Notes: generated from the sequence alone by a model not told the origin. A stretch of 64,000 nt of DNA from Candidatus Omnitrophota bacterium (GCA_043797665.1 JAZDPL010000058.1:5198-69197), one strand, 5' to 3'. Numbered from the stretch's first letter, positions 13,386 through 53,221 are shown. Made by a program: numbers and translations.

Positions 13386-13491
13386 GTAGGGCGGGTCCCC
13401 TTACCATAGGATTGGTAAGGGCTCAATTCATTGAGCCCGCGGGTCGGATAAACATGTTCCTGCGGATAGTAAGCAGGAATCCGACCTCTAC
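13386..13491. repeat. Composite repeat: GTAG REP doublet with two nested elements
   Basis: GTAGGG...GGGCTCAATTCATTGAGCCC GCGGGTCGGATAA...ATCCGACCTCTAC interrupted by a 24-bp hairpin (13398-13421) and a TTCCTGC..GCAGGAATCC hairpin (about 13453-13482). Confidence 0.8.
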
Positions 13492-13564
13492 ATTTGGGGA
13501 CTTGTTGACTTGACTTTTGGACAAAGCAGCGTTTACAATAGGTAATAGGGATTAACAAAAATAT

Positions 13565-15451
13565 ATGTTGGGAATGAAATCAAAATTATTGCTATTTTTG
13601 GGATTAGTGACCCTTCTATCCTTACCGGTATCGGAAGCCGGGGAAGAAGCGGATGCTTTAAAAGCGACGGAAAAAGCCGCGCCGGTCTATCAAGAAGCCC
13701 AGTCGGCTTACTGGGCCGGCAACTACGCGTCTGCCAGTTCCCTCTTTTCCCGGGTATCCGCGATTGACCCTAACTATAATTCACTGAATGTTGCCCTCTA
13801 TCAGAACCTTGCCAGTTACCATCTGCGGGGCGAAAAGTCCGGGGTAATTAAAACCTACGTGGAGCCCAAACGGGAACAGATTTTAAAACGTGACATCTTA
13901 ATCAATGACGAAGAAGAATGGCTTCATTTGGTGGGGGAGACCGAAGCGGTCTTACAGGAAACCAGTACCTACCTTGCTAAAGTAAGCGCCTCAGAAAAAG
14001 TCTCCGGAGAGCAACTCATCGATTCCTGGTATTACCTCAAACAGGCAAGGTTAGCGTTTGAACGCAAAGAGTATCTGGATACTATTAATTACAGCCACAT
14101 CGCCAGGGAAAAAGCCGAATTCGTCTTTGAAAAGGTACTGGAACCGGGAAAGACAATCCTGGGAAAGGTCGGCGATACCATGGTCACCCTTAATGTGACC
14201 GACCTGGAACTAAAAGAAGCCCTGAAACAGATTTACGACTTAACCGGTGTAAATATCGTCCTCTCGGCCGGAATCTCCGGGACGGTGACGATGAACGTTA
14301 CCAACCTACCTTTGCGCCAGATTCTGAACCTCATCGTGGATACCAACGGATTGAAATATACGGAAAAGGATAACGTCATTACGATTCTGACTCCGGAAGA
14401 ATACGAAAAGACCGCAGAGGGTGTAGCCCTGCGCGGCAAAAAAGTCTATCCGCTCCAGTACACTGAAGCCCAGGGGATAGCCAAGGCGATTCGGGACACC
14501 ATGGGAATAGAAGCGATTACTGCGGACGTGCGGAGCAATGCCATCATTATCGATGCCACCAGTGCCCAGCAAGCCCAGGACGTGGCACAATTAATCAAAG
14601 AATTAGACATGCCGGTCAACCAGGTGCTGATTGAAGCGGAATTGATTGAGGTAACCTACCAAAAAGACAAAAGTTTAGGTATCAACTTTTTAATTCAAAG
14701 CCGGATGATGGACGACGTCAGAATCACCGGACCAACATTCAGCAGCGCAGACAGTTTAGACACTTTAGCCACCGGAACCGATTTATTATACTTCGGTCTG
14801 ACCCACCAGGATTTCCAGGCTATTGTTAGTGCCCTCTCAACAGAAGGGACCATCCACCGGCTTCAAAGCCCCCGGATAATGGCGATTTCCGGAAGTTCCT
14901 CGGTAATTTCTACCAAAGATACTTATCCTACAATCGCGGCAACTCTAACCGCAGCGACGACAACAACCCCCGAACGCGTCACCTATACTGTTACAGAGAC
15001 AGATGTAGAAACCACTTTTGAAATCACGCCCTTGATTCACAATAACCGAACTATTTCGCTCAATTTGGGTCTGGTGGTGGAAAGGGTAAGAGAGGTAATC
15101 AGTCTCCCAACCTTTATCGCCGGAATAACCCAGGATTACCCCCTGGTGACCACCCGGGAAGCATCCCAGAATGTTATCCTCTGGGATGGTCAAACTTTGG
15201 TGGTCGGTGGTATTGTCACCACGGATACTATCAAGAACGAGGTCAGGGTCCCATTCCTCGGTAACATCCCCATCCTGGGCAACCTTTTCAAAAGAACCAC
15301 CCTCTCAACTGAAGATTCGGAATTGATCCTCTTCTTAACCCCCCACATCGTCAAAAGTTACGAAGAAGGCAGAACCCTTACCCGGGAGGCACAAGCATCC
15401 GAGGCGAAAAAAGAACCGAAGAAGAGTATCGTAGACCACCCCGGGTTCTAA
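13565..15451 (+). CDS. Secretin (PilQ/GspD family) with N-terminal helical/TPR-like extension
   Basis: Signal peptide, STN-like region, QVLIEAELIEV, VPFLGNIPILGNLF, ELILFLTPHIV. Confidence 0.9.
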   Translation: MLGMKSKLLLFLGLVTLLSLPVSEAGEEADALKATEKAAPVYQEAQSAYWAGNYASASSLFSRVSAIDPNYNSLNVALYQNLASYHLRGEKSGVIKTYVEPKREQILKRDILINDEEEWLHLVGETEAVLQETSTYLAKVSASEKVSGEQLIDSWYYLKQARLAFERKEYLDTINYSHIAREKAEFVFEKVLEPGKTILGKVGDTMVTLNVTDLELKEALKQIYDLTGVNIVLSAGISGTVTMNVTNLPLRQILNLIVDTNGLKYTEKDNVITILTPEEYEKTAEGVALRGKKVYPLQYTEAQGIAKAIRDTMGIEAITADVRSNAIIIDATSAQQAQDVAQLIKELDMPVNQVLIEAELIEVTYQKDKSLGINFLIQSRMMDDVRITGPTFSSADSLDTLATGTDLLYFGLTHQDFQAIVSALSTEGTIHRLQSPRIMAISGSSSVISTKDTYPTIAATLTAATTTTPERVTYTVTETDVETTFEITPLIHNNRTISLNLGLVVERVREVISLPTFIAGITQDYPLVTTREASQNVILWDGQTLVVGGIVTTDTIKNEVRVPFLGNIPILGNLFKRTTLSTEDSELILFLTPHIVKSYEEGRTLTREAQASEAKKEPKKSIVDHPGF

Positions 15452-15465
15452 TACCAATTAAAACT

Positions 15466-15515
15466 GTAGGGGCTTGATTTATCAAGCCCGCGGGTCGGAT
15501 AAATCCGACCCCTAC
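15466..15515. repeat. GTAG-family REP doublet (50 bp)
   Basis: GTAGGGGCTTGATTTATCAAGCCC-GC-GGGTCGGATAAATCCGACCCCTAC. Confidence 0.9.
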
Positions 15516-15541
15516 ATTAAATTAAACTATACGAGGATACA

Positions 15542-16105
15542 ATGATGAAGAAATACTTAACGCTCTTTATGGTACTTTCCATCTTTATACCGGGCTCTTT
15601 ATGGGCACAAACGAAAGCGGCCAAAGCGACTAAACCGGACAAGGAACAGTTGCAGGCATTGTTAAGACCAAAGATAGAAGGCATGATTGTAAAACACCCC
15701 AGTATGGATGTGCGCATCTGGTCTATGGCGCTTTTGCAGAATTTAAATAAAGTTGACGATTTTGAACTGGTGATGCTGCCGGTCCTGATTGAGCAGCTGT
15801 CCAGTAAGGATGAAACCAGCCGGCTGGTTGCAATGCAGGTGCTCAGAGACGTTATTGACCTGGATAAAGAACAATGGGAAAGTATTATGGCTCCGGTTAT
15901 GGTCAATTTAACCAAAACGTCTAAATCCCCTGAAATTAAGACCTGCGCCATTACATGTCTTAAATTACTCGGTCAGTTGGACGAAAAGGATATGAAAATC
16001 TTACCCCTTCTGTTTGATTTGGCACAGAGCAATGACGCACAAGTACGGAAAACCGCTTTGGGGAGCATCAATGACATCCTGGCTAAAAAGAGTGGCGGCA
16101 CGTAA
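15542..16105 (+). CDS. Exported HEAT-repeat-like protein
   Basis: Signal peptide; repeats such as LSSKDETSRLVAMQVL and QSNDAQVRKTALGSI. Confidence 0.65.
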   Translation: MMKKYLTLFMVLSIFIPGSLWAQTKAAKATKPDKEQLQALLRPKIEGMIVKHPSMDVRIWSMALLQNLNKVDDFELVMLPVLIEQLSSKDETSRLVAMQVLRDVIDLDKEQWESIMAPVMVNLTKTSKSPEIKTCAITCLKLLGQLDEKDMKILPLLFDLAQSNDAQVRKTALGSINDILAKKSGGT

Positions 16106-16871
16106 AAGCTTGATATTCTGGCAAAGTTTCATCATTCTGGCGGGAAATTACTCCTCCATCTACCAGCGTGACCTTTTTCAATTGACACCACCGCCACCGG
16201 CAATCGAGGTCAAGACGATCGTCAGGGAACCGCTCCTGACGGAAATCCTTACCTTAAAAGGAACCGTTATCCTGGAAGGCTCGTTGCCGCTGGCGATAAT
16301 TGAAGACCGCCGCTCAAAAACAGAAACCATCTACCCGGAAGGAGGGACTGTTGCGGGAGCCAAGGTTGTAAAAGTGGAACAATACCGGATTACCCTTTTA
16401 GACAAGGAAGGCAAAGAAGTCAATCTTTTTCTTTCTTCCGTCAATGAACCTTCGTCTTCAATATCAATTACCGGCAAGCCGGCCATAGAAATCAGCGGTG
16501 CACCTTCCGGACCGGAACAGTCTAAACCTGCGGAAGAAACAAAAGTCCCGGAAATCCTGTCGGTAAGTCTGACTGCCGCCAGACAATCAGTAAACCAGAA
16601 CTATGAGGAGATTAAAAAACTTAGAATAGCACCGGTGGTCACGGAAGGAAAGGTTACCGGCTACCGGGTCAAGAACATTGAACCGAATTCTCTGGCGAGC
16701 CGGTACGGTTTTCAGAATGGAGATGTGGTCACCAAAGTAAACGGCTCCCCATTAGAGAGTCTCTCCCGTCTGAGTAATATATACCGCTCCATGGAACCGG
16801 GCAAACCGGTTTCCGTGGAAGTCGTACGTGCCGGTCAACCAATTACCCTGCTCTTCCAGGTACTCCCGTAA
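16092..16871 (+). CDS. gspC: GspC-like protein with C-terminal PDZ domain
   Basis: LTLKGTV..AIIED HR domain; GYRVKNIEPNSLASRYGFQNGDVVTKVNG PDZ; GTG start at 16092 assumed. Confidence 0.8.
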   Translation: MAARKSLIFWQSFIILAGNYSSIYQRDLFQLTPPPPAIEVKTIVREPLLTEILTLKGTVILEGSLPLAIIEDRRSKTETIYPEGGTVAGAKVVKVEQYRITLLDKEGKEVNLFLSSVNEPSSSISITGKPAIEISGAPSGPEQSKPAEETKVPEILSVSLTAARQSVNQNYEEIKKLRIAPVVTEGKVTGYRVKNIEPNSLASRYGFQNGDVVTKVNGSPLESLSRLSNIYRSMEPGKPVSVEVVRAGQPITLLFQVLP

Positions 16872-16888
16872 ATAATTCAAAAATCAAA

Positions 16889-18538
16889 ATGCAAAAATCG
16901 AAATTTTATAGGATGAAACGACGTTGCCTGATTATTATCTTATCAATCCTTTTTTCGGTATCCGGGTATCTTTGTGCGGAACAGACCTTTTCCATTGATT
17001 TCAATAACGTAACTCTGTCAAATTTCATCCAGGCGATGAGTCGTCTGCTGAACCAGAACTTCGCCCTGGCGCCCGGCGTCTCCGGAAACGTCACCATCTA
17101 TTCTGCCAGGCCCATTCCGGTCAAAGAAGCGGAGTCCGTCTTTTATACCGTGTTACACCTCTACGGTTTTACCGCTATTCCGGATAACAGAGCTAACCTT
17201 ATTAGAATCGTTCCTCTGGCAGAGGCAAAGGTCGGAAATATTGAAGTCGGTGCGGGCAAGGACCCGGAAAAGTTGACTGCCTTAGGAGAAAAATTTCTCA
17301 CCCAGATTGTCCCGTTGACCTACAGCAAGCCGGAAGCACTCCTGCCTCTGATTAACCCTTTTCTCTCCAAAAACGGTAATCTAAGTTCGGACAGTAAAAC
17401 CAATACCCTTCTCATTACGGATGTTGCCAGTAATATCAGAAAGATTCTTCTGGTCATCAACGAATTAGACAAACCAGCCCCGCCGGGACAGGAAACGCTC
17501 CGGATTTACCAGTTACTTAACGCCAACGCCCAGGAAGTGGCCCAGGTTTTAACCGCGGTAGCGGCCCAAAAGAGTAAGCCGGCCAAAGCAGGTGAAGTGT
17601 CCGTTCCCATCTCCGTTGTGGCGGCTCCCGCTACCAACAGTCTTTTAATTACCGCCGGTCCGGAAGATTACGCTTCCCTGGAAAATGTAATCCGGGAATT
17701 GGACCGGATGCCCGATCAGGTCTTGATTGAAGCCCTGGTTGCAGAAGTAAGCGGGGATTTAATAAGGGAATTCGGAGTGCAATGGCAGTACTTTGAACCG
17801 GAAGAAGGGAACTATAAAGGATTAGGGGCGGTCGGCGGAACGGTTGATGCCACCCTTATGAGTGAGATAGAGAGCGGGATTCCACCCGCCGGGCTCCTGG
17901 TCGGCGTAGCCAAAGGCAGTTCTTTTGATGTCGGAGCCATCCTTCGCCTCTACGGTAAAAACAGTAACTTCAAAATTCTTTCGACCCCCCAGATTGTTAC
18001 CACCGACAACAAAGAAGCAATAATCAAGGTGGCGGAAACCATCCCTTATTCCAAACAAATCACTTATTCTACCGATTCCTCGACAATTCCCACCCAGAGT
18101 TTTGACTACCAGGACGTGGGAATCACCCTCAAAATTACACCCCATATCAGCGAGGACCGGAACGTCCGCTTGGATATTGAACAGGAAGTAACCAAACTGG
18201 TCTCTTACTTATCGACTTCATCCAGCAGTGCCACCGTTCTGGCGCCCACCATCGCCAAGAGAAGCGCCAAAAGCAGCGTCATTATCGCCGACCGGGCAAC
18301 CTTAGCCTTAGGCGGGCTGATTCGTAATGACAGCGACGAAACAATAGAAAAGGTACCCGGTTTAGGTGATATTCCCATTCTGGGATACCTGTTCCGGCAC
18401 AAAACAAAAACCCTCACCCAGACCAGCCTCTATATCTTCATAACGCCTACCGTCATCACCACCAAAGAAGAAGCCGCCACACTTACGGAAGAAAAGAAAT
18501 CTCTTCTGAAGCAAACAAAACCACTCTCGGAAAAATGA
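16889..18538 (+). CDS. gspD: Type II secretion secretin GspD
   Basis: N0/N domains, QVLIEALVAEV, LSTPQIVTTDN, KVPGLGDIPILGYLF. Confidence 0.92.
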   Translation: MQKSKFYRMKRRCLIIILSILFSVSGYLCAEQTFSIDFNNVTLSNFIQAMSRLLNQNFALAPGVSGNVTIYSARPIPVKEAESVFYTVLHLYGFTAIPDNRANLIRIVPLAEAKVGNIEVGAGKDPEKLTALGEKFLTQIVPLTYSKPEALLPLINPFLSKNGNLSSDSKTNTLLITDVASNIRKILLVINELDKPAPPGQETLRIYQLLNANAQEVAQVLTAVAAQKSKPAKAGEVSVPISVVAAPATNSLLITAGPEDYASLENVIRELDRMPDQVLIEALVAEVSGDLIREFGVQWQYFEPEEGNYKGLGAVGGTVDATLMSEIESGIPPAGLLVGVAKGSSFDVGAILRLYGKNSNFKILSTPQIVTTDNKEAIIKVAETIPYSKQITYSTDSSTIPTQSFDYQDVGITLKITPHISEDRNVRLDIEQEVTKLVSYLSTSSSSATVLAPTIAKRSAKSSVIIADRATLALGGLIRNDSDETIEKVPGLGDIPILGYLFRHKTKTLTQTSLYIFITPTVITTKEEAATLTEEKKSLLKQTKPLSEK

Positions 18539-20154
18539 AAATTGGTGAAATTCTGGTCGGTCGCGGGTACTTTACCCAGGCCGACCTGGACAAAGGTCTT
18601 CACCTCCAGGAAGAACGACCCCAGATGCATATCGGGGAAATTCTGCGTGAGATGGGCGTGGTTGAAGAGGAAGCGCTTCTCGCCGGACTTTCGGAACAGT
18701 TGAGTATCCCTTTTCAAAAGGACTTAGCCTTATATTTTACCCAGGAGATTGGAGCCTTAATCCCTTTTGAACTATGGCATGGATGGACCGCAATACCCAT
18801 CAAAAAAGAGGGGAAAATCTTTATTGTCTCTACCGACCCTTTGGCTTTACCCCGAATGGAGATAGAAAAAAAGATGCAGTTTCCGGTAGACCTGGCTTTT
18901 GGCCTTTCCGAGGAAATCATCAACGTTTTAACTCAGGGCTACTGGCGACCGGCCCAAGAGAAACGTGAATATGAAGAACCTTCGGTCCTTTCCGAAATGC
19001 CGGTCATTGAAACCGAAGCAACCGGTGAAAACCTTCTTGATTTGGCTAACAAGGCACCGGTCATCCGGCTGCTCAACCAGATTATATTCCAGGCTCTCCA
19101 GCAAGGCGCCAGTGACATTCACCTCCAGCCCCAGAAGAATGAATTCCGCGTCCGTTACCGGATTGACGGAATTTTACACGATGTCTTCACCCTCTCGTCC
19201 ACGATACACCCGGCGTTAATATCCCGGGTTAAGATTCTTTCCAAACTCAATATCGCGGAACGCCGACTCCCTCAGGACGGTCGTACCACCGTCTCTTCAA
19301 AAGACCACCCTATTGACATCCGGGTGTCTATTCTACCCACCACCTGTGGCGAAGCTGCGGTTCTGCGCCTCCTTGACCCTTCCTCATTTCTCTTCTCTCT
19401 GGCAACCCTTGGTCTTTATCCGGACGAACTGGAACAACTGGAACAACTTATTTCTTCTGACCACGGTATCATTCTCCTCACCGGGCCTACCGGCAGCGGC
19501 AAAACAACTACTCTTTACGCTTCTCTGCAAAAGATCAACCAACCTTCCCGGAATATGATAACTCTGGAAGACCCGATTGAGTATCAACTTCCCGGCTTGA
19601 GTCAAATTCAGGTAAACCCTGCTATCGGCTTATCGTTTGCGGCGGGTTTGCGTTCCATCCTGCGTCATGACCCGGATATTCTGATGATTGGCGAAATCCG
19701 GGACAAAGAGACAGCCGATATGGCAATTCAAGCAAGTCTCACCGGACATCTGGTCTTCTCCACCCTCCATACGAACGACGCGGCCAGTGCGCTGACCCGG
19801 CTCCTGGAAATGGGTATTGAGCCCTATCTTATCTCCTCGGCACTCCTGGCGGTAATCGCCCAACGCTTAGTTCGGCTCCTTTGCCCCCGGTGTAAGGAAA
19901 ATACCTCAACAGAATCCCAACGTTCCCGCGGATGTGAATACTGCTTTCATACCGGTTACCGGGGTCGTACCGGAATCTTCGAGTTCTTAGCCATTGACGA
20001 CGAAATCCGCCAGATGATTATGCAGAAAAAACCCTCCCAGGAAATAAAAGATTACGCTTTAAAGAAAGGGATGCGCACCCTGCGTACTTCCGGGGAAATT
20101 AAGAACAAGGAAGGTCTGACCACGCTGGAAGAAGTCCTGCGTGTCACCACCTAA
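18535..20154 (+). CDS. gspE: Type II secretion/pilus ATPase GspE/PilB
   Basis: Walker A GPTGSGKT, TLEDPIEY, LRHDPDILMIGEIRD, CxxC...CxxC. Confidence 0.93.
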   Translation: MKIGEILVGRGYFTQADLDKGLHLQEERPQMHIGEILREMGVVEEEALLAGLSEQLSIPFQKDLALYFTQEIGALIPFELWHGWTAIPIKKEGKIFIVSTDPLALPRMEIEKKMQFPVDLAFGLSEEIINVLTQGYWRPAQEKREYEEPSVLSEMPVIETEATGENLLDLANKAPVIRLLNQIIFQALQQGASDIHLQPQKNEFRVRYRIDGILHDVFTLSSTIHPALISRVKILSKLNIAERRLPQDGRTTVSSKDHPIDIRVSILPTTCGEAAVLRLLDPSSFLFSLATLGLYPDELEQLEQLISSDHGIILLTGPTGSGKTTTLYASLQKINQPSRNMITLEDPIEYQLPGLSQIQVNPAIGLSFAAGLRSILRHDPDILMIGEIRDKETADMAIQASLTGHLVFSTLHTNDAASALTRLLEMGIEPYLISSALLAVIAQRLVRLLCPRCKENTSTESQRSRGCEYCFHTGYRGRTGIFEFLAIDDEIRQMIMQKKPSQEIKDYALKKGMRTLRTSGEIKNKEGLTTLEEVLRVTT

Positions 20155-20170
20155 GGGGTTGCTCAATAAT

Positions 20171-21373
20171 ATGCCCAGATTCCATTACCTGTGTCTGAAT
20201 GAGAAGGGTAAACGTATCAAGGGAGAGATAGAGACTCCGGATTTAAACATCTGCCGGGCAGACCTGAAAAAAAAAGGATTCTTCCCGATTAAAATTTCGG
20301 CTGGCGAGGCTGCAAAAAAACCTTTATTCCCCCGGTGGCAAAAAAGGAATCCCCAGGAACTCATCGGAGTTTTACGCCAATTGGCTTCTTTAATCTCCAG
20401 CCATATTCCGGTTCTGGACGCGGTGGAAACGGTCACCCCCCAAATTAAAGAACCTGGCCTTGTCCAGACATTTCTAAATCTGGCTGAATCCCTACGCCGG
20501 GGAAATCTTTTCTCCGAATCCTTACGCCGGGAAAAAATATTCCCGGAGAACCTGCCGGAATTGGTTGCGGTCTCGGAAGCCACCGGGACACTGGGCCTGG
20601 TTCTTTCTGAATTTGCCCGTTCCCAGGAAACCGCTCTGAGTCTGCGGCGCCGGATGGTTACCAATCTCATTTATCCTTTCTTTCTTCTCGGGGTATCTGT
20701 CCTCATCCTGATATTTCTCTTTATGGTGGTTTTACCCAAAGTCACCTCTGTCTTTGCGGAAAGCGAGGTGCCCCTCCCTGCTTTTACCCGTTTTGTCCTT
20801 TCGATAACCTATGGACTCCGGCACTTCGGCATCCCCTTCTTAATCATCGCCGGAGGAGTCTGCATAATCTGGCGAAAAAGTCAGACCACCCAGAAACGAC
20901 GGGAGTACCTCTGGCGGTTATTACGACGCTTAGCCTTTACCGCGGAACTTTCACGTAAATATTCGTTGAGTCTCTTTGCCCAAAACTTAGCCATTTTACA
21001 CAAAGGCGGCGTAAAACTGATTGAAGCACTCCGCCTGATAGAAAATATCGTCCCGGATAAAATTTTTCGCCAGGAAATCATCCGGATTGAATTTGACCTG
21101 AACAAAGGCGTTTCCCTGAGCCAGGCTCTGGGTAAAAGCAGCCTCTTCCCTCCTTTCCTTATCCAGATGGTGAGGGTGGGCGAAGAGACCGGCGAACTGT
21201 CGCCGATGTTAGAGAAGGTAGCCGGGGTTTATGCGGAAGAGGTGGAAACCGGTTTAGCCAGGCTGGTAACCCTTCTGGAACCAACCATGATTGTGGTAAT
21301 GGGAATTTTAGTGGGTGGCATCGTAGTCTCGGTCCTCCTGCCAATCTTTGAAATGTCCCGTATCATTAAATGA
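20171..21373 (+). CDS. gspF: Type II secretion inner-membrane protein GspF/PilC
   Basis: Two T2SSF domains, GEETGEL, LLEP; ATG at 20171 preferred. Confidence 0.92.
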   Translation: MPRFHYLCLNEKGKRIKGEIETPDLNICRADLKKKGFFPIKISAGEAAKKPLFPRWQKRNPQELIGVLRQLASLISSHIPVLDAVETVTPQIKEPGLVQTFLNLAESLRRGNLFSESLRREKIFPENLPELVAVSEATGTLGLVLSEFARSQETALSLRRRMVTNLIYPFFLLGVSVLILIFLFMVVLPKVTSVFAESEVPLPAFTRFVLSITYGLRHFGIPFLIIAGGVCIIWRKSQTTQKRREYLWRLLRRLAFTAELSRKYSLSLFAQNLAILHKGGVKLIEALRLIENIVPDKIFRQEIIRIEFDLNKGVSLSQALGKSSLFPPFLIQMVRVGEETGELSPMLEKVAGVYAEEVETGLARLVTLLEPTMIVVMGILVGGIVVSVLLPIFEMSRIIK

Positions 21374-35148: not shown

Positions 35149-35174
35149 GTTAATTTGCCATCAAAATGCATTGC

Positions 35175-35309
35175 TCTATCCCATCCCTTACCGATTCAAC
35201 GGTAAGGGAACCCGTAAGAGATAGGGGACCCGTATTCCCGCGTGTATTAGGCGGGAATCCATTTATTTTTGGTGTGGATACCCGCTTACTATCCGCGGCG
35301 GGTATGACA
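35175..35309. repeat. Nested repeat cluster: 24-bp hairpin element(s) plus an inverted pair of GTCATTCCCG-family hairpins
   Basis: CCCTTACC-gattcaac-GGTAAGGG (35185-35208), GGGGACCCG, TATTCCCGC..GCGGGAATCCA (35233-35261), TGGATACCCGC..GCGGGTATGACA (35275-35309). Confidence 0.75.
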
Positions 35310-44345: not shown

Positions 44346-44358
44346 GCGTAAGGGATTG

Positions 44359-44943: not shown

Positions 44944-44984
44944 TTCCTTTTACTCCGTTTTTAATACAAATGCATTATTTATTA

Positions 44985-45061
44985 TGTCATTCCTGCATGC
45001 CTTAAGCGGGAATCCAGTGATTATTAGTATGGATTCCTGTTTACTATCCACAGGAATGACA
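44985..45061. repeat. Inverted pair of GTCATTCCCG-family hairpins
   Basis: TGTCATTCCTGC..GCGGGAATCCA (44985-45016) and TGGATTCCTG..CAGGAATGACA (45030-45061). Confidence 0.85.
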
Positions 45062-45082
45062 ACTTACTTATTGCATTGTGTA

Positions 45083-46018: not shown

Positions 46019-46057
46019 ATCTATCCTCCTCTTTAATATATTATAGTCTATTTCAGC

Positions 46058-46963
46058 CTATAATTGCAAATCCATGGGGTTGTTAAACAATAAAAGTTTT
46101 CTTTTCATTAATGCGATATGCTGAGGTGTAGTACCGCAACATCCGCCAATAATCCCGGCGCCGGCTTCAACCAATCCCTGTATCTGCTCAGCCATATCCG
46201 ACGGTCCCAGCGGAAAGAAAGTTTTCCCGTTTGAAAGATAGGGTTTACCCGCGTTCGGCTTTGCCCACAGCGGAGAATCGGTATGTTCCCTCATTTGACT
46301 GATGACCGCAATCACCTCCGGAACGCCTTCTCCGCAATTGCTCCCGATGGCTAACACGTGCGCACCAAAAGATTCCGCGACGTCTTTCGGACTTTCACCC
46401 ATTAAAGTCCGGGGTCCCTTCCGACCGGGGAAAAAGGTGAAAGAAACTACCAACGGAATGTCCTGTTTCTCCCTGATTGCCGCAACGATTACTTTAACTT
46501 CCGCGGCCGAAGACATCGTCTCAAGTAATACGAAATCAACCCCTCCTTCGACTAAAATGGCCGCCTGTTTCTGATAAGCGGCGGCTAACTTTTTCGGGGA
46601 TAAACTTCCTATTGGTTCCAAAATCTCGCCGCTGGGCCCAAGGTCACCGGCGATAAAAAATGTCTGTTCCTTCCGGAGTTCCCGGGCAATGAGAACCGCT
46701 TTCCGGTTTATCTCTTCAAACTTCCCCTCCAAACCAGACCGGCGTAATTTAAAAAGGTTGGCACCAAAAGTATTGGTAAGAATAATCTCGCTTCCCGCAT
46801 CTAAATAATCCCGGTGTATTTCGGCAATTGCCTCGGGTTGAAAAAGATTGAGAGTTTCCGGTGCCTGACCTGATGCCAATAATCCTCTTTCGGCTAGAAG
46901 TGTACCCATTGCACCGTCAGCCAGTATAACCCCTTTTTGCTTTAAAAATTCTTCGAACGACAT
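46058..46963 (-). CDS. Stand-alone homocysteine S-methyltransferase domain protein
   Basis: DGAMGT, TNTFGAN, GSNC, PNAG, GGCCGTTP; ATG at 46963. Confidence 0.88.
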   Translation of the reverse strand: MSFEEFLKQKGVILADGAMGTLLAERGLLASGQAPETLNLFQPEAIAEIHRDYLDAGSEIILTNTFGANLFKLRRSGLEGKFEEINRKAVLIARELRKEQTFFIAGDLGPSGEILEPIGSLSPKKLAAAYQKQAAILVEGGVDFVLLETMSSAAEVKVIVAAIREKQDIPLVVSFTFFPGRKGPRTLMGESPKDVAESFGAHVLAIGSNCGEGVPEVIAVISQMREHTDSPLWAKPNAGKPYLSNGKTFFPLGPSDMAEQIQGLVEAGAGIIGGCCGTTPQHIALMKRKLLLFNNPMDLQL

Positions 46964-46987
46964 AGTACAAGCGTATTGCTTACCATG

Positions 46988-47105
46988 CCCTTTCCAATCC
47001 GATGGAAAGGGGACCCGTATTCCCGCATACTTAAAGCGGGAATCCAAAACTTGTCGCCTGTATGCTATAAGCGTGGATTCCTGCTTACAATCCGCAGGAA
47101 TGACA
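46988..47105. repeat. 24-bp hairpin plus inverted pair of GTCATTCCCG-family hairpins
   Basis: CCCTTTCC-aatccgat-GGAAAGGG-GACCCG-TATTCCCGC..GCGGGAATCCA; TGGATTCCTGC..GCAGGAATGACA (47074-47105). Confidence 0.8.
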
Positions 47106-47107
47106 AA

Positions 47108-48295
47108 TTATTTATTACGTTTTCTTAAATTCTGTTGGGTGTATTCCCATAAGAACCGTCCCGCCTGCTGAAAATCATCTAAATAATCCTTCAGTTCCGG
47201 TGTCTCGAAATTATCCACCAGCGGCTGTCCGTATCTATTCATCTCCGTGCCGACCACGACCAGTATTTTTAGATTTCTTGCCGCGGTCATCAGCGATTTG
47301 AGATTGGCGGATTTAAGCGCTTTTTCTGCCGGGTCTTTGATGTTCCAGAATCTTTCCGGAATAATATTAACCAGCGGCATACCCTTATCCTTTAAAAAAG
47401 CAAGGGTTTCTTCTATATTTTTTTCTCCGGCACTGGTTCCGTCGTTAAAAGTAGCGGTCGGAACCGCTCCCGTTAACTGAACCATCTCCACGACCTCTTC
47501 CAAAAGCGGAAAAGTATCCGTCTCCGGCTTAATGTAACCAACCCCTTTCCCCTTCATCAGTTTCATCCTTGCCAGTTCCTGGAAACTATGGGGTTGTTCT
47601 ATCTTATTCTTCAATTCTTCCTCAGGCACTTTTAGTACTTCAGCCCAGAACCCAATCCGTTTTTCCAAACCGGGAAACAGTTCTACGGCTCTCTGATAAT
47701 AAGCGGTAAGAATATGCCGCTCGGTCGCGTTACCTTTCGGTGTCAGCGGTAATACATCCGTCTTGTAGTTGATTGTAACCGGGGTCAAAAAACCGTTGAC
47801 CCTTTCAACGATCAGCCGGTTTCGCGCCTGAGCCCGTTTTTTCAGCGAATCCAGGATGGCTGCGGCACGACTTCCTCTCTCCGGTTGGCTGAAGAAACCG
47901 GTACCCATAATGTAGAATACGCCGGGCTCACCCGGCGAGTTAATCACCTTATCCGCATACTCTCCGACGAAGACCCGGGTCTCAAAACCTACTTCGGTCT
48001 TGATACCCAGAATCTCTGCGGACGTAAACGTCTCCTCCAGACCGTCCAGAACGTCAAAATCCACAATCCCGGCCATATCCAGTCCGCGGCAGAATGCTTC
48101 CCACAGAAAGTGCGACGGCGAAAATCCGTAGGCACTGAACGAAAAGAAGGTGTGGCCGTGGAGATTAAGCCAGCCCCGGTTCGTCTGTACCGGAATCTCT
48201 CCCCGGTCAGACATTGCCTTTAGACTTTGTAAGGCTGAATACCGCTGGCTAACGTCAAAGTCGTCCAATTGTCGTATCAGTTCTTCTTTTTCCAT
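47108..48295 (-). CDS. PHP-fold-like protein with non-canonical metal ligands
   Basis: NLHGHTFFS, GIVDFDVLDG, GFETRV, GTEMN at the usual PHP motif positions. Confidence 0.6.
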   Translation of the reverse strand: MEKEELIRQLDDFDVSQRYSALQSLKAMSDRGEIPVQTNRGWLNLHGHTFFSFSAYGFSPSHFLWEAFCRGLDMAGIVDFDVLDGLEETFTSAEILGIKTEVGFETRVFVGEYADKVINSPGEPGVFYIMGTGFFSQPERGSRAAAILDSLKKRAQARNRLIVERVNGFLTPVTINYKTDVLPLTPKGNATERHILTAYYQRAVELFPGLEKRIGFWAEVLKVPEEELKNKIEQPHSFQELARMKLMKGKGVGYIKPETDTFPLLEEVVEMVQLTGAVPTATFNDGTSAGEKNIEETLAFLKDKGMPLVNIIPERFWNIKDPAEKALKSANLKSLMTAARNLKILVVVGTEMNRYGQPLVDNFETPELKDYLDDFQQAGRFLWEYTQQNLRKRNK

Positions 48296-48338
48296 ATCCT
48301 TAGGGATTTCGGCAACCCCTTATATTTTAACCAACACA

Positions 48339-48367
48339 TTGACGAAAAAGCAAGTTTCCCATATAAT
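48339..48367 (+). promoter_or_regulatory. Sigma70 promoter for dapB
   Basis: TTGACG-17 bp-TATAAT. Confidence 0.75.
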
Positions 48368-48378
48368 ATAGCAATAGT

Positions 48379-49155
48379 ATGGTTAGAATAGTGGTGGCAG
48401 GTGCGGCGGGCCGGATGGGACAGACAATTATAAACACTCTTCCGGAATTTCCGGAACTGTCTCTGGTGGGTACGGTAGAAAGACCGGACCATCCCAATCT
48501 GAACCGGGAATCCGTCCCGGGCATACCCATATCGTCCGATGTTGAGAAAAGTCTGGAGGCGGGCGATGTTTTAATTGACTTTACCACGCCCTCCGGAACG
48601 CTCCGGAACCTTAAGGTCTGCCTGAAACTACGCAAGGGTATCGTTATCGGAACAACCGGCTTTAAACAAGAAGAACTGGCAGAGATTAAAACCGCGGGTG
48701 AAAAAATACCGATTCTCCTTTCACCCAATATGAGTTTAGGAGTAAATCTTCTCTTCCACCTAACAGAGGAAACCGCTAAAAACCTTCCAGACTACGAAGT
48801 GGAGATTGTGGAAACCCACCATAACCAGAAAGCTGACGCACCCAGCGGTACTGCCTTGAACCTGGCGGAAATAGTGGCAAAAGCCCGTGAGCAGAATTTA
48901 ACAGAAACCGCAGTTTACGGAAGACACGGGCGAGCGGGTCCCCGTAAAAACTCCGAAATCGGTATCCATGCTATCCGGACCGGCGACGTGGTCGGTGAAC
49001 ATACCGTCATCTTTGGGACCACCGGCGAACGTTTGGAATTGACACATAAAGCCGGCTCCCGCCAGGCTTTTGCCCGCGGTGCTCTGAAAGCCGCCCTGTT
49101 TGTTTCTCAAAAAAAATCCGGTTTCTATACGATGCATGACCTATGGGGTTGTTAA
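48379..49155 (+). CDS. dapB: 4-hydroxy-tetrahydrodipicolinate reductase
   Basis: GAAGRMG, IGTTG, ETHHNQKADAPSGTA. Confidence 0.96.
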   Translation: MVRIVVAGAAGRMGQTIINTLPEFPELSLVGTVERPDHPNLNRESVPGIPISSDVEKSLEAGDVLIDFTTPSGTLRNLKVCLKLRKGIVIGTTGFKQEELAEIKTAGEKIPILLSPNMSLGVNLLFHLTEETAKNLPDYEVEIVETHHNQKADAPSGTALNLAEIVAKAREQNLTETAVYGRHGRAGPRKNSEIGIHAIRTGDVVGEHTVIFGTTGERLELTHKAGSRQAFARGALKAALFVSQKKSGFYTMHDLWGC

Positions 49156-49163
49156 ACAATAAA

Positions 49164-50324
49164 ATGGTAATAGAAACCAACAAAAAGCTGCAGAAACTGC
49201 CTCCTTACCTTTTCGTGGAGATTGACCGCAAAAAAGCACAACTAAAATCCGCAGGCGTGGATATCATTGACTTCGGAATCGGAGACCCGGATACACCTAC
49301 ACCCGAATTTGTAATCTCGGCAATGGCTAAAGCAATCACTAAACCGGAATACCACCGTTACCCTTTAGGGCGCGGGAAACCGCTCTTCCGTAAGGCAGTA
49401 GCGGAATGGTTCCAAAGACGGTTTGGTATCGTAGACCTCAATCCGGAAAAAGAAGTCGTAGCATTGTTAGGGTCCAAGGAAGGTATCGGGCACCTTCCCT
49501 TTGCCTTTCTCAATCCGGAAGATACAGTCATTACGCCGGAACCAGGCTACCCGGTTTATGCCAACGCCACCATCCTGGCCGGCGGAACGCCTTACCTGTT
49601 ACCGCTTAAAGAAGATAACGGCTTTCTTCCTGACCTCAGCAGTATCCCGGATTCTATCTGCAACAAAACTAAAATTATTTTTCTGAACTATCCCAACAAC
49701 CCTACCGGGGCAGTGGCTCCGGACAGTTTCTGGAAAGAAACGATAGGATTTGCGGAAAAATACGGAATAATCTTAGCCTCAGACGCTGCCTATTCTGAAA
49801 TCTATTACCAGGAAAAACCAAAAAGCCTCTTCCAGTTTCCGGGAGGAAAAGAGGTGGGTATAGAATTCCATTCTTTTTCCAAAACCTTTAATATGACCGG
49901 CTGGCGCTTAGGGTTTGCCTGCGGCAACGAAAAGATCATCTCCGGTTTGTCCGCGGTCAAAGAAAACCTGGATTCCGGTGTCTTTGATGCGATTCAGGCG
50001 GCCGGAATTGCTGCCCTCTCCGCACCGGAAGAATTCACGGAAGGTTTGCGCCGGATGTACCGCAAAAGAATGGAAATTCTGGTTAACGGGTTAAACGAAT
50101 GCGGATTCTCAACCCGACCTCCCGCCGGGACCTTTTACCTCTGGCTCAAAGTCCCGGAAGGAAAAAAATCGGCTGGATTCTCCTCATATCTTCTGGAAAA
50201 GTTCGGAATTCTGACCACACCGGGCAACGGATTCGGACCGGACGGAGAAAGCTATATCCGTTTTTCAGTAACGCTGAGCGAAGACAGAATTAGAGAAGCA
50301 ATAAACCGCCTGAAAAATTCTTGA
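49164..50324 (+). CDS. dapL: LL-diaminopimelate aminotransferase (class I PLP)
   Basis: LPPYLF, NYPNNPTG, DAAY, SFSKTFNMTGWRLG; adjacent to dapB. Confidence 0.85.
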   Translation: MVIETNKKLQKLPPYLFVEIDRKKAQLKSAGVDIIDFGIGDPDTPTPEFVISAMAKAITKPEYHRYPLGRGKPLFRKAVAEWFQRRFGIVDLNPEKEVVALLGSKEGIGHLPFAFLNPEDTVITPEPGYPVYANATILAGGTPYLLPLKEDNGFLPDLSSIPDSICNKTKIIFLNYPNNPTGAVAPDSFWKETIGFAEKYGIILASDAAYSEIYYQEKPKSLFQFPGGKEVGIEFHSFSKTFNMTGWRLGFACGNEKIISGLSAVKENLDSGVFDAIQAAGIAALSAPEEFTEGLRRMYRKRMEILVNGLNECGFSTRPPAGTFYLWLKVPEGKKSAGFSSYLLEKFGILTTPGNGFGPDGESYIRFSVTLSEDRIREAINRLKNS

Positions 50325-50328
50325 AAAT

Positions 50329-50387
50329 GTAGGGGTTCAATTTATTGAACCCGAGAGATACGCGGGTCGGATGAATCCGACCCCTAC
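50329..50387. repeat. GTAG-family REP doublet
   Basis: GTAGGGGTTCAATTTATTGAACCC...GGGTCGGATGAATCCGACCCCTAC. Confidence 0.88.
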
Positions 50388-50402
50388 ACTAAGGAGTCTA
50401 AA

Positions 50403-50825
50403 ATGGTTGAGGTGGTAATCGTAGTAGGAAGTGAATCTGACCTGTCTTTTATTGCACCGGCGGAAGAGGTCTTAAAGAAAAATCGCGTCTCTTATCAGGT
50501 TAAGGTCCTCTCCGCACACCGCAATCCAAAAGAGACTGCGGCTTTCGCCCAAAAAGCAGCCGGTAACGGCATAAAAACAATCATTGCGGCAGCCGGCCTT
50601 TCGGCTGCCCTGCCCGGTTTTATTGCCAGCCACACGGAATTGCCGGTTATCGGAGTTCCGGTTCCGGCCGGTCATTTAACCGGCATCGATGCCCTGTTAG
50701 CGATTCTCCAGATGCCTGGCGGCGTACCGGTAGCCACCATGGGATTGGGCAAACAGGGACCAAAAAACGCAGCGTTGCTGGCACTTCGCATTTTAAAACT
50801 GACTAAAAAATCCAAAAATCACTGA
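50403..50825 (+). CDS. purE: N5-CAIR mutase
   Basis: GSESD, SAHR, AGLSAALPG, PVIGVP, QMPGGVPVAT. Confidence 0.95.
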   Translation: MVEVVIVVGSESDLSFIAPAEEVLKKNRVSYQVKVLSAHRNPKETAAFAQKAAGNGIKTIIAAAGLSAALPGFIASHTELPVIGVPVPAGHLTGIDALLAILQMPGGVPVATMGLGKQGPKNAALLALRILKLTKKSKNH

Positions 50826-50827
50826 AT

Positions 50828-50904
50828 TGTCATTCCTGCGGATAGTAAGCAGGAATCCATACTCGTAATTACTGGATTCCCGCTAAACCCTTGCGGGAAT
50901 GACA
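50828..50904. repeat. Inverted pair of GTCATTCCCG-family hairpins
   Basis: TGTCATTCCTGCGGATAGTAAGCAGGAATCCA and TGGATTCCCGC..GCGGGAATGACA. Confidence 0.87.
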
Positions 50905-50933
50905 CCTACTGTAGGATATTCGAAAGGAGGCAA

Positions 50934-51959
50934 ATGAAGATTGGAATTCTGACTGGCGGCGGTGATTGCCCGGGTCTAAATCCGGCAATTCGGGGTTGTG
51001 TCTATCGCGGCCTTGATTTTGGTTACGAATGTTTGGGCTTTCTGGAGGGATGGAAGGGAATTTCTGACGGGAATTACATCCCTTTAGGCTTAACAGAAGT
51101 GGAAAATATCATTGACCGGGGCGGTACTATTTTAGGTACCAGCCGTTATAACCCTTTCAAAAAAGAAGGCGGTACGGAGAAGGTGGAGGAAACGATACGC
51201 CGGGTCGGTATTGGCGCCCTGGTGGCAATGGGCGGCGAAGATACCTTAGGCGTGGCGAACAAACTTCACCAGCGGGGCTGTAAAGTTGTGGGTGTACCCA
51301 AAACGATGGACAACGACCTCTCGGCAACCGATTATACCTTCGGCTTTGATACCGCGGTTACCCGGGCCATTGAGGCGTGTAGGGCGTTATCCGACACCGG
51401 ACAGAGCCACCGCCGGATAATGATACTGGAAGTAATGGGCAGGCACGCCGGCTGGGTCGCTCTCTTCACCGCTTTAGGCTCCGGCGCTGACTGGGTTCTT
51501 CTGCCCGAATTCAAACCAGACCTGTCGGCAATGCTTAGACACCTCAAGGGTATCTACCAGCGGAAGAAATTTGCCCTGGTAATAATTTCGGAAGGTACCG
51601 ATTTTACTGAAGGAGCAGAAAAATCCGCCGGTGAAAAAGATTCCTTCGGTCACGTTATCCTGAAAAAACGCGGGGTGGGCGAGCAGATTGCCAATTACAT
51701 TGAGAAAGAAACCGGGATTGAAACCCGGGTTTCGGTCATTGGTCATATGCAGAGGGGCGGTGCACCAACCCTCTTTGACCGTATACTGGGCCTCCGGGCA
51801 GGCGCAAAGGCTGCGGAACTTGTTTCCGAAGGCAAATTTGGAATGATGGCAGCATTAAAAGGACAGGAAGTGGTGGGCGTACCCCTGGCAGAAGCGGTAG
51901 CCCATCTGAAAATAGTTGACCAGAAGTGGTACGACCTGGCTGGCGTCTTCTTTAAATGA
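50934..51959 (+). CDS. pfk: 6-phosphofructokinase, PPi-dependent signature
   Basis: GGDCPGLN, GGED, PKTMDND, MGR. Confidence 0.88.
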   Translation: MKIGILTGGGDCPGLNPAIRGCVYRGLDFGYECLGFLEGWKGISDGNYIPLGLTEVENIIDRGGTILGTSRYNPFKKEGGTEKVEETIRRVGIGALVAMGGEDTLGVANKLHQRGCKVVGVPKTMDNDLSATDYTFGFDTAVTRAIEACRALSDTGQSHRRIMILEVMGRHAGWVALFTALGSGADWVLLPEFKPDLSAMLRHLKGIYQRKKFALVIISEGTDFTEGAEKSAGEKDSFGHVILKKRGVGEQIANYIEKETGIETRVSVIGHMQRGGAPTLFDRILGLRAGAKAAELVSEGKFGMMAALKGQEVVGVPLAEAVAHLKIVDQKWYDLAGVFFK

Positions 51960-51972
51960 CTCGCAGAGACAA

Positions 51973-52161
51973 GTAAATTACCCCGTGCTTCCGCACGGGG
52001 CATTGGGACATTAAAAATGTTTGTATTCAACATTCATGGTAGGGGCTTGATTTATCATGCCCGCGGGTCGGATAAATCCGACCCCTACAATTTTGATTGC
52101 AAAACAACTCCAAAAGGAAACCCTTTCCTCCCCGTGCTACCGCACGGGGTATCCAGGGTTT
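51973..52161. mobile_element. IS200/IS605-like miniature element (PATE-like) containing a REP doublet
   Basis: Two near-identical hairpins CCCCGTGC(TTCC/TACC)GCACGGGG at 51981-52000 and 52130-52149; REP doublet at 52039-52088. Confidence 0.6.
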
Positions 52162-52168
52162 ATTTTTC

Positions 52169-53125
52169 ATGAAAATTGCGGTATTAACCACCGGTGGCGA
52201 TGCCCCCGGAATGAACCCGGCAATTCGGGCGGTCGTTCGCCGCTCCCTTGCTTTGGGCTGGGAAATCTGGGGAGTAGAACGAGGCTTCCAGGGCTTGGCT
52301 GACGACGACCTGCGACTGATGGAACACGGTTCGGTCAGCGGTATCATCAGCCAGGGCGGTACCGTCTTAAAAACGATTCGCTGCCCGGGATTTAAAGACC
52401 CCGGATTCAGACAAAAGTGTTACCAGAACTTAAACCGACGCGGAATTACAGGGCTGGTGGTCATCGGTGGCGACGGCTCCCTGGCAGCCGGCAGGCTCAT
52501 CGTAACCGAGAGTCCAATCTCACTGGCATTTATTCCAGCCAGCATTGACAACGACATTCCGGGAACCGACGAGACCATCGGATTCGATACTGCGGTCAAT
52601 ACCGCCCTGGAAGCAATTGACAAAATCAGAGACACCGCCACCAGTCACGAAAGGGTATTTCTGGTTGAGGTAATGGGTCGGGAAAAAGGATTCCTGGCAT
52701 TAGCGGTGGGCTTGGCGGCCGGTGCGGAAGTAACCCTGATTCCGGAAATACCGTCTACCACTGAAAAAGTGGCCGATATCCTTCTGGAAGGACAGAAAAA
52801 AGGGAAACACAGTATGATTGTAGTGGTGGCGGAAGGTGCGGCAGAAGTGACTGATTTAGCAGAAAAGATTGGCGCCAGATATCCGGGCGAAGTACGTTAT
52901 TCCATCTTAGGTTACATTCAGAGGGGCGGCGCACCTTCGGCGCGGAGCCGTTATTTAGCCTTTCTCTTCGGCAGCCGGGCAATAGAAGCGCTGGCTGAAG
53001 GTCAGAAAGCGGTATTCGTCGGTCTGGAAGCCGAGAAGGTAATCACCCGGAACCTTCTGGAAGTCTTTCCCAAGAAAACCGTGGACCAAAACGTCTTCCG
53101 CTTGGCCCACCTCCTCTCCGCGTAA
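52169..53125 (+). CDS. pfkA: 6-phosphofructokinase, ATP-dependent signature
   Basis: GGDAPGMN, GGDGS, PASIDND, MGR; ATG at 52169. Confidence 0.92.
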   Translation: MKIAVLTTGGDAPGMNPAIRAVVRRSLALGWEIWGVERGFQGLADDDLRLMEHGSVSGIISQGGTVLKTIRCPGFKDPGFRQKCYQNLNRRGITGLVVIGGDGSLAAGRLIVTESPISLAFIPASIDNDIPGTDETIGFDTAVNTALEAIDKIRDTATSHERVFLVEVMGREKGFLALAVGLAAGAEVTLIPEIPSTTEKVADILLEGQKKGKHSMIVVVAEGAAEVTDLAEKIGARYPGEVRYSILGYIQRGGAPSARSRYLAFLFGSRAIEALAEGQKAVFVGLEAEKVITRNLLEVFPKKTVDQNVFRLAHLLSA

Positions 53126-53126
53126 C

Positions 53127-53221
53127 GTCATTGCAGAAGCGTGGCAATCCGACGTCCTTTGTCATTGCAAGGGTACCCTTACAGATGAATCTGTAAGGGG
53201 CGTAGTATGCGTGGCAATCTC
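53127..53221. repeat. GTCATTGC...GTGGCAATC repeats, one carrying the 24-bp hairpin
   Basis: GTCATTGCAGAAGCGTGGCAATCC; GTCATTGCAA-gggta-CCCTTACAGATGAATCTGTAAGGG-..CGTGGCAATCTC. Confidence 0.7.

Follow-up and report, generated by a model that had tools for sequence, protein, structure and literature searches.

The window analyzed here, a 64,000-nt stretch (G000:C21:5198-69197) of the draft genome G000 of an uncultured groundwater bacterium of Candidatus Omnitrophota (2.687 Mb, 93 contigs, 48% G+C, estimated completeness 86%), contains four copies of a 31-nt element that is probably a very small, gene-less mobile DNA. The element combines a 5′ tag with a 9-bp hairpin, in which the base of the stem is fixed (CCCTT/AAGGG) and the inner four to five pairs are merely complementary. 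As judged from sequence comparison, it is an insertion and not a fixed sub-module of other repeats, because filled and empty versions were found at both paralogous and orthologous sites. A preliminary description of the window had proposed a structure-selected mini mobile element, and this proposal is supported by the covariation of the stem and by the filled and empty sites, within the genome as well as at orthologous positions.

In its own orientation the unit reads R-CGGGT-N, followed by a 9-bp stem starting CCCTT, a 6-nt loop T-N-G-R-A-T and a return stem ending AAGGG. The element's own sequence is 29 nt, and a length of 31 nt is obtained when the two invariably flanking bases are counted. 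Four 24-bp hairpins are located exactly where first reported, at 13398-13421, 35185-35208, 46988-47011 and 53176-53199; the corresponding degenerate pattern gave 4 matches in the window and 0 in 100 dinucleotide-preserving shuffles. They had been assigned 8-bp stems with compensatory changes. The three inner pairs quoted do differ in a compensatory manner, but the stem is 9 bp long, since the loop-closing bases also pair and covary (A-T, G-C, C-G and T-A). Likewise, the "GACCCG-like tail" ascribed to each copy is present but is really the fixed 7-nt 5′ tag R-CGGGT-N of the oriented element, so that the unit measures 31 nt and not 24. This 5′ extension accompanies the hairpin across the whole genome. 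With filters off, a covariance model recovered exactly the four known copies in the window and no more, and the predicted DNA folds of these 31-mers ranged from -7.9 to -9.5 kcal/mol.

G000 was scanned for the exact tag CGGGT followed by a single spacer base and a 9-bp stem, of which no more than one pair was mismatched, around a 6-nt loop; this gave 93 matches, compared with 0, 1 and 1 in three second-order Markov shuffles (chance expectation about 1). A looser structural scan returned 101 rows, which represent 97 copies after removal of 4 reverse readings of palindromic copies. The tag was exactly CGGGT in 89 of the 101 rows, and GTAG was seen only where the host was a GTAG repetitive extragenic palindromic (REP) sequence. 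Pairs 1-4 of the stem were C-G, C-G, C-G and T-A, and pair 5 was T-A in 93 rows and A-T in 7. All four Watson-Crick pairs occurred at pair 6 (36, 27, 24 and 13 rows) and at pair 9 (55, 26, 18 and 2), pairs 7 and 8 were of two kinds each, and only 2 non-pairs were found within pairs 5-9. The commonest loops were TAGGAT (42), TTGAAT (34) and TCGGAT (14).

Covariation was assessed on an alignment of 43 copies, 4 from the window and 39 from other genomes (7 genomes in all), chosen by a pattern that left pairs 6-9 free. All 261 of 261 cells were paired and 4 of the 9 pairs varied on both sides. Double-changed cells numbered 41 compared with 10.8 in shuffles, a value reached by 0 of 500 shuffles, and the signal was lost when the partner column was slid. 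No one-sided changes were present in this alignment, which means that there were no G-U intermediates. The mismatches found in G000 cluster in the three outermost pairs, with T.G (8) and C.A (7) in balance. No orientation bias was detected: 31 copies had the same and 20 the opposite orientation to tandem flanking genes, and 24 of 59 were concordant with local GC skew, which is a weak measure on draft contigs. We infer that the hairpin, or its duplex palindrome, is recognized as DNA and not as RNA, because the stem varies by Watson-Crick pairs only, T.G and C.A are equally rare and orientation is unbiased with respect to genes.

The preliminary description had also suggested a covariance-model scan of the genome and its relatives. 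The model, built on the 43 aligned copies, gave 116 matches in G000 and was positive in 7 of 41 relatives (116, 48, 18, 10, 7, 3 and 3), all belonging to two genera of one family; it was not found in the other 34. The positive genomes are G000, G001, G003 and G005-G008, whereas G002, G004 and 32 class-level relatives are negative. In the whole collection, the exact pattern occurred elsewhere at 39 loci of 6 other species genomes, 29 of them in the same-genus genome G001, with hosts including Candidatus Omnitrophota and Candidatus Ratteibacteria. Two sister genera of Omnitrophota/Ratteibacteria make up the entire range of the family, a restriction that in our reading may reflect a recent, lineage-restricted burst. 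A conserved "master" locus was considered for L023, L026 and L034, which share identical flanks (GGAGG/../GT), and was rejected, the right flank being itself a multicopy repeat there.

Multicopy 14-mers, of at least 4 copies, cover 3.45% of G000 and 15.6% of its crude non-coding DNA. Within 20 nt of the element, such a 14-mer was present on at least one side for 69 of the 97 copies, compared with 16.7% of random non-coding positions and 3.9% of random genome positions; within 30 nt, the corresponding values were 79 of 97, 23.3% and 6.1%. Repeat context is thus enriched 4- to 5-fold over random non-coding DNA, and diverged repeats are undercounted because the test uses exact words. The initial statement that the hairpin is found only inside other repeats was too strong: most copies do lie beside a repeat, but 18 of the 97 have no multicopy 14-mer within 30 nt, and one metagenome insertion lies in unique DNA of a 5′ untranslated region (UTR). 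Most copies are single, and head-to-head pairs were observed at C38 13561/13601 and C82 17580/17626. Crude open reading frames (ORFs) of at least 120 codons contain 21 of the 97 copies, 19 of which lie within 275 nt of an over-extended ORF start or 45 nt of an end. Two copies of the 97 are deep in long open frames that cross repeat arrays, namely G000:C1:10011-12692 (893 codons) and C85:44518-46083 (521 codons), both in the CCTTTGCAAAAG...GGGATTGAGGGGGA host.

Paralogous empty sites, defined by 12+12 nt of flanking sequence with at most one mismatch per side, were found for 36 of the 97 copies. The commonest filler at these sites was GA (13), followed by G (11), GG (4), AA (4), GT (2), GGG (1) and GAT (1). 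Individual host families show the same relationship. Among 333 matches to the ends of ATTCCYGC...GCRGGAAT hairpins, the next bases were GACA in 128 and ACGG, the start of the element, in 11, and the filled ones continue with CA. Similarly, 97 of 150 CTCAGRAT ends were followed by GACA and 5 by ACGG, and the 96 tetranucleotides after GTCATTGC included GAGC (13), GAGG (6) and ACGG (4). For the REP type that hosts copy 1, empty orthologous sites read GTAGGGGCTCAAT or GTAGGGGCTTGAT (G001 alignments; metagenome loci L157, L168 and L231).

At least 10 host contexts were recognized, including the element's own loop (Table 1). Direct reading bore out the earlier observation that the copy at 35185 is nested in a degenerate copy of itself, and empty CCCTATCCCTTGAATGGGATAGGG copies, the uninterrupted counterpart of this outer copy, occur in G000. 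Self-nesting was found at 5 loci with an identical TT/31-mer/AT junction: the one in the window (35174-35233), C38 13135, C86 12542 and the G001 loci L022 and L027. The other neighbors reported for the window copies were also correct, that is, the GTAG REP at 13386, the ATTCCCGC hairpins at 35234 and 47019 with their common junction, and the GTCATTGC...GGCAATC repeat at 53161. Pairing of the copy 1 tag GCGGG with the CCCGC of its host REP is possible and results in a three-way fold. From the element's tag, the heptamer GCGGGTC recurs in GTAG REP dimers, within their spacer and their second arm (..GAGCCCGCGGGTCGGAT..), at 13437-13443 of the window and at L002 1317-1323. Host families share end motifs, (T)GTCAT at one end and ATC at the other, as in GTCATYCTGAGC..CGAAGRATC, GTCATTGC..GGCAATC and TGTCATTCCYGC..GCRGGAATCCA (333 hairpin ends), which suggests one host superfamily with interchangeable stems.

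Table 1 Copies of the 31-nt element and their hosts in the window, further host contexts in G000 (filler between hyphens), and single-element differences at orthologous sites.
Feature	Position	Strand	Description
Copy 1	13391-13421	+	First base G 13391, tag CGGGT 13392-13396, spacer C 13397, hairpin 13398-13421; stem CCCTTACCA, loop TAGGAT; 52.5 bits; DNA fold -7.9 kcal/mol
GTAG REP, host of copy 1	13386-13440	+	GTAGG, insert, CTCAATTCATTGAG CCCGC; element occupies the place of GG in empty relatives
Copy 2 (inner)	35185-35215	-	ACGGGTT, stem CCCTTACCG, loop TTGAAT; 53.8 bits
Outer degenerate copy	35174-35233	-	ACGGGTC CCCTATCTC TT, inner copy, AT GGGATAGAG; 2 stem mismatches; split in the loop where empty copies read TTGAAT
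ATTCCCGC...GCGGGAAT hairpin	35234-35258	.	Hosts the outer copy at its GGAAT end
Copy 3	46988-47018	-	ACGGGTC, stem CCCTTTCCA, loop TCGGAT; 50.4 bits
ATTCCCGC...GCGGGAAT hairpin, host of copy 3	47019-47043	.	Junction GGAAT/A...G/CA; 128 empty hairpins read GGAAT-GA-CA
Copy 4	53169-53199	+	Variant tag AAGGGTA, stem CCCTTACAG, loop ATGAAT; 43 bits
Repeat, host of copy 4	53161-53219	+	GTCATTGC, insert, GCGTAGTATGCGTGGCAATC; empty members GTCATTGC-GA-GC or GTCATTGC-GA-GG
Host context			Loop of GTCATYCTGAGC-GA-AGCGAAGRATC
Host context			Loop of GCAGGCT-GA-AGCCTGC
Host context			GTCATTGC-GA-G
Host context			5′ arm of GTAG REPs, GTAGG-GG-CTCAAT
Host context			CCTTTGCAAAAG-G-GGGATTG
Host context			~200-nt repeat, GCGCGAC-GA-AGGTT
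Host context			Stem of a reversed element copy, TAT-GA-CAA
Host context			Element's own loop, TT-GA-AT
Orthologous difference	C85 49567		Filled in G000; empty GAGC-GA-AATC in G001
Orthologous difference	C86 19715		Filled in G000; empty in G001, GG within a G run
Orthologous difference	C68 near 39660		Filled in G001 and metagenome contigs; empty GTAGGGGC in G000
Orthologous difference	C8 near 39200		Filled in G001 and metagenome contigs; empty GTAGGGGC in G000
Orthologous difference	C21 near 69870 (G000:C21:69826-69930, just past the window end)		Filled in L147/L153; empty in G000, unique sequence between a TATAAT box and the gene's ribosome-binding site

Empty sites in a related genome, a check proposed in the preliminary description, were found at orthologous positions of G001, the flanks of which are 90-97% identical to those in G000. 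The comparison covered 790 kb of about 1.3 Mb of G001, a part that carries 27 copies. There, 30 of the 97 copies known from G000 have colinear flanks, and 21 of the alignments were examined by eye; starting from G001, 16 of its 27 copies could be aligned. Five single-element differences were identified (Table 1), and a sixth candidate, L039/L206 compared with C85 near 49509, is hard to read because its flanks have diverged. The element of L147/L153, metagenome contigs of a related strain, is situated between a TATAAT box and a start codon, with its AAGGGG end at the place of the GGGAGG ribosome-binding site of G000. Of 93 loci in the metagenome collection, 41 were placed on G000 and 28 on the compared part of G001; for 26 of these 28, G001 has the same element at the site, and the gain was therefore a single informative site. 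One orthologous site, C45 near 5800 (G000:C45:5495-6057), holds different variants in G000 and in L170, L219 and L222, with pair 9 C-G, loop CCGGAT and 3′ arm AAGAG as opposed to A-T, TAGGAT and AAGGG, the outcome either of compensated change at the site or of substitution by a further copy of the element. Sites are not conserved between G000 and G001, and from presence and absence we infer that the element is mobile. Four public sequencing runs contained related strains (90-99% identity) with cluster-level differences only. A contig from these runs skips a 136-nt cluster with two copies (C38 13535-13672; locus L138) and carries 9 other letters instead, and contigs of related strains have an extra 38-nt GCAGGCTGAAGCCTGC hairpin of another family at G000:C38:7465; the absence of the one and the gain of the other suggest that hairpin repeat families turn over quickly.

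The junctions define a narrow target. In the 101 rows, the base preceding the element was never A (T 42, C 39, G 20), the base following it was C in 35, A in 32, G in 29 and T in 5, and the last four bases of the left flank were variable (GAAT 14, CGAC 10, AAAG 7, GAAC 5, and others). Where the empty state is known, Y-G-R-M becomes Y-R-[CGGGTN...AAGG]-G-M, for a net gain of 29 nt. The targets are G-purine steps, mostly Y-GA-M (AAT-GA-CA, TT-GA-AT, GCT-GA-AGC) and also GG within G runs, which are located in the loop, foot or arm regions of other hairpin repeats. The choice is strand-specific, with GA and never TC. The proposed targeting of palindromic repeats holds in so far as copies lie in or beside hairpin repeats, but the target itself is the G-purine step that such repeats offer, and REPs as such are not established as the target.

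The base with which the 31-mer begins corresponds to the second base of the target. Where GA is the commonest filler, 11 of 13 copies start with A, and the 2 exceptions are in GTCATYCTGAGC repeat loops, for which GG ranks second among the fillers. Where the commonest filler is G, GG or GGG, 12 of 16 copies start with G, and the remaining 4 belong to one long repeat in which this G is followed by A. At GA targets, the insert is preceded by the A and followed by the G. Because the G and R flanks are swapped in this manner, the reaction is not a simple single-bond cut-and-paste. Insertion into a single bond (Y/G, G/R or R/M) and a 2-nt crossover with duplication were both considered and rejected, as they predict flanks unlike the observed AAT-A...G-CA and TT-A...G-AT. 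A pre-existing AG target is implausible, since no tetranucleotide listed after the 333 ATTCCYGC ends starts with AG.

A mechanism that would accommodate these features begins with a target read as single-stranded or extruded hairpin DNA. The element would be moved by a protein encoded elsewhere that recognizes the tag, the CCCTT/AAGGG stem base and the loop. After insertion, some composites of host and element have spread as units. More speculatively, the swapped flanks could be the footprint of an undescribed strand-transfer reaction: a G-purine step, in DNA that is single-stranded or extruded as a hairpin, would be cut on both sides of the dinucleotide and the 29-nt hairpin exchanged into it, by the same enzyme class that would also drive the small dispersed repeats of cyanobacteria. 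This reading is offered tentatively and with a low probability; if true, the element would belong to a new class of minimal mobile DNA that uses a chemistry of its own.

Candidates for such a protein were sought in G000. Two Y1/HUH matches were found. One is a REP-associated tyrosine transposase (RAYT) of 143 aa (G000:C47:11213-11641), located between housekeeping genes. A RAYT flanked by the element had been suggested as a further check; the gene is instead flanked by GTAG REPs on both sides, and the nearest 31-mer is about 2.2 kb away. Relatives of this RAYT were present in 12 of the 41 genomes, and close orthologues (at least 82% identity) in G000, G001 and G006, the genomes richest in copies, a coincidence that is confounded by descent. 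Given its GTAG REP flanks and its relatives in three genomes with 0 copies, the RAYT was set aside as a weak, unsupported candidate. The second Y1 match is a 450-aa protein with a Y1-like domain lacking two histidines at what we take to be the expected positions. A TnpB/IS605 system was discarded upon finding no TnpB match. CCCTT is the cleavage site of poxvirus-type topoisomerases, on which the idea of a type IB topoisomerase was based; none of 41 genomes, G000 among them, gave a match to PF01028, the Deinococcus control being positive, and this candidate was rejected as well. A retron-like source of hairpin single-stranded DNA was also rejected, the only reverse transcriptase, on C50, being accompanied by an Avd-like four-helix ORF and an N-rich template-like ORF. 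In this cassette (G000:C50:7709-11332; L140, outside the window), which resembles a diversity-generating retroelement, the 346-aa reverse transcriptase is accompanied by an Avd-like ORF of 116 aa with a four-helix bundle and by a short ORF whose end is the N-rich GGSWNNNANNCR...NRNNNNGFR, a stretch that would be a template or variable repeat.

Several observations weigh against the element being mobile DNA with a dedicated enzyme and a defined target. No enzyme was linked to it in the searches for Y1/HUH, TnpB, reverse transcriptase and type IB topoisomerase candidates, and the three copy-free genomes contain RAYT relatives of 52-57% identity. Most of the 37 displayed G000/G001 alignments (21 + 16) are gains or losses of whole repeat clusters. 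No single-element polymorphism was seen in public reads, the best runs of which cover 5-12% of the words of a 9.9-kb five-copy stretch, and the genomes compared are incomplete (86% for G000; 790 kb of the ~1.3-Mb G001). Paralogous empty sites are not true ancestors, and only one orthologous pair is of the GA type. At GG targets, the result is the same as that of a plain 29-nt insertion between two G, so that the swap is not discriminated there. Finally, junctions vary: AAAGG takes the place of AAGGG at the 3′ arm of two variants in the CCTTTGCAAAAG host, with the junction inside an A/G run of the host and a gain of 30 nt, which looks like joining by microhomology.

Some of these points would be accounted for by templated repair or copy-choice, in which breaks or stalls at extruded hairpins are mended by copying a short piece of a filled hairpin via microhomology, so that the 31-mer would spread as a side effect of hairpin processing, with no enzyme of the element's own. 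Such a process fits the replacement of the two target bases, which are neither kept nor duplicated, the position of the CCTTTGCAAAAG-host junction inside shared A/G runs, the different variants at C45 near 5800 (as conversion between copies) and the failure to find a dedicated enzyme. However, host families share at most 1-3 bases at the junctions (T, C or G on the left; C, A or G on the right), which is scant homology for such copying, and the same base-exact junction recurs across unrelated hosts. Agreement of the first base with position 2 of the target is not expected from copied donor flanks, and the strand-specific use of GA implies sequence recognition. Repair or copy-choice is considered unlikely on balance.

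A second alternative is that the hairpin is a fixed building block of mosaic repeats resembling bacterial interspersed mosaic elements (BIMEs) and spreads only within larger composites. Composite spread certainly has examples. A ~200-nt repeat has about 17 empty and 13 filled copies (e.g. G000:C15:12568-12872, C79:14113-14313 and C89:18441-18640) and its composite form is also present in G001 and metagenome contigs; the 8 filled copies that were classed share one stem variant and the filled copies listed read alike, which indicates a host-element composite amplified after a single insertion. The 4 CACTTGCCA copies likewise share one host, and the prevalence of whole-cluster differences between G000 and G001 is in keeping with this explanation. 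Empty hosts, however, are in large excess (128 vs 11 and 97 vs 5). Of 40 stem/loop variants, 11 are shared between host classes, and one class can hold many different variants; there are 11 among the 16 copies at ATTCCYGC ends. Single elements differ at orthologous sites, and one insertion is in unique DNA. The building-block explanation is therefore largely refuted and its probability is very small. Copies mostly outside repeats, or a hairpin that is a fixed sub-module of one family, had been named at the outset as findings that would speak against a mobile element, and neither is the case.

Spread through RNA, in which a transcript of the element is reverse-transcribed into nicked targets as is said to have been proposed for the cyanobacterial repeats, is also highly improbable. 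One reverse transcriptase gene is present, and the AAAGG junction fits target-primed reverse transcription, of which small target losses and 3′-junction microhomology are typical; but the enzyme looks to be of the diversity-generating-retroelement type, the stems contain no G-U pairs, T.G and C.A mismatches are in balance (8 vs 7), there is no bias of transcribed orientation and both junctions are exact. Least probable of all is a hairpin with a function, such that it would not be selfish DNA but would be kept by selection as a DNA site for protein binding or as a stabilizer or regulator at the RNA level. With Rfam 15, the window gave only rRNA and tRNAs at the gathering score, 7 element-bearing loci gave 0 matches at E<=0.1, and direct reading of the copies showed no T run after the hairpin. 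The strong covariation, the invariant loop and stem base, the nearly always intergenic position and the L147/L153 copy between TATAAT box and start codon would agree with this, but Rfam matches, T runs, G-U pairs and orientation bias (31 vs 20) are all missing, sites differ between G000 and G001, and nesting of a copy within a copy destroys the outer hairpin.

As a probable mobile DNA, the element is near the lower size limit of its kind. About 100 near-identical copies, sharply defined recognition features and a single-dinucleotide target offer a handle on the mover and, since the junction signature excludes textbook mechanisms, candidate enzymes would be testable with a few oligonucleotides. 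Such elements may remodel promoters and 5′ UTRs, as at L147/L153, and layered hairpin mosaics of this type confuse repeat and small-RNA annotation in uncultured bacteria.

Among known systems, the closest resemblance is to the small dispersed repeats (SDRs) SDR1-8 of Nostoc punctiforme and its relatives, which Elhai and coworkers reportedly described in 2008 as "very small mobile repeated elements" of 21-27 nt and for which they are said to have proposed an RNA intermediate. Like the SDRs as reported, the 31-nt element is a gene-less hairpin of tens of nucleotides with compensatory changes, is embedded in repeats, nests in itself and is restricted to one clade. It differs from them in phylum (Omnitrophota/Ratteibacteria), in its single-stranded CGGGT tag and in its Watson-Crick-only variation, which points to DNA, and its length of 29-31 nt lies just outside the reported 21-27 nt. 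The 21-nt unit SDR5 occurs in association with HIP1 (PMC13756078) and, according to PMC4390886, is inserted precisely between bases 3 and 4 of GCGATCGC. By that account the SDR5 site is likewise a G/A step after a pyrimidine, as is the target of the 31-nt element, and the SDR5 insertion is described as plain, unlike the swapped GR step seen here. Compared by description and not by sequence, the 31-nt element would be an analogue of the SDRs and not a member.

REPs are sorted by GTAG or CGTC tags, and some REP families located inside palindromes are also found empty, as described by Di Nocera et al. 2013 (PMC3733652). In common with REPs and BIMEs thus described, the element is a short palindrome with an unpaired tag at one end, has many copies, is intergenic, forms mosaic clusters and is found inside other palindromes. 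Its tag CGGGT, however, is neither GTAG nor CGTC, and the RAYT is not flanked by it. Self-nesting and a defined dinucleotide target are unreported for REPs in the consulted portion of PMC3733652. Compared with miniature inverted-repeat transposable elements, there is no target duplication, two bases being replaced or rearranged; the 5′ tag has no inverted partner, and no longer element with these ends was present among the 116 matches. Elements of the IS200/IS605 type insert just 3′ of a conserved 4-5-nt target, all bases of which are kept. With their miniature derivatives, the 31-nt element shares recognition of a hairpin plus adjacent bases, the absence of target duplication, a strand-specific target and a preference for DNA that can become single-stranded. 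Unlike them, it has a left flank that is merely "not A" (0 of 101), a rearranged GR step and one hairpin in place of two subterminal ones, and no TnpA-TnpB pair was found. A search of a limited literature collection, main texts only, returned no description of the 31-nt family, none of three of its commonest 24-mers and no report of REPs for Omnitrophota. Minimal mobile DNA of this kind is known, though barely understood, and the element adds a new family from a new phylum; its novel features are the exact anatomy of tag, fixed stem base, free inner pairs and fixed loop, together with the G-purine target and the swapped-flank signature.

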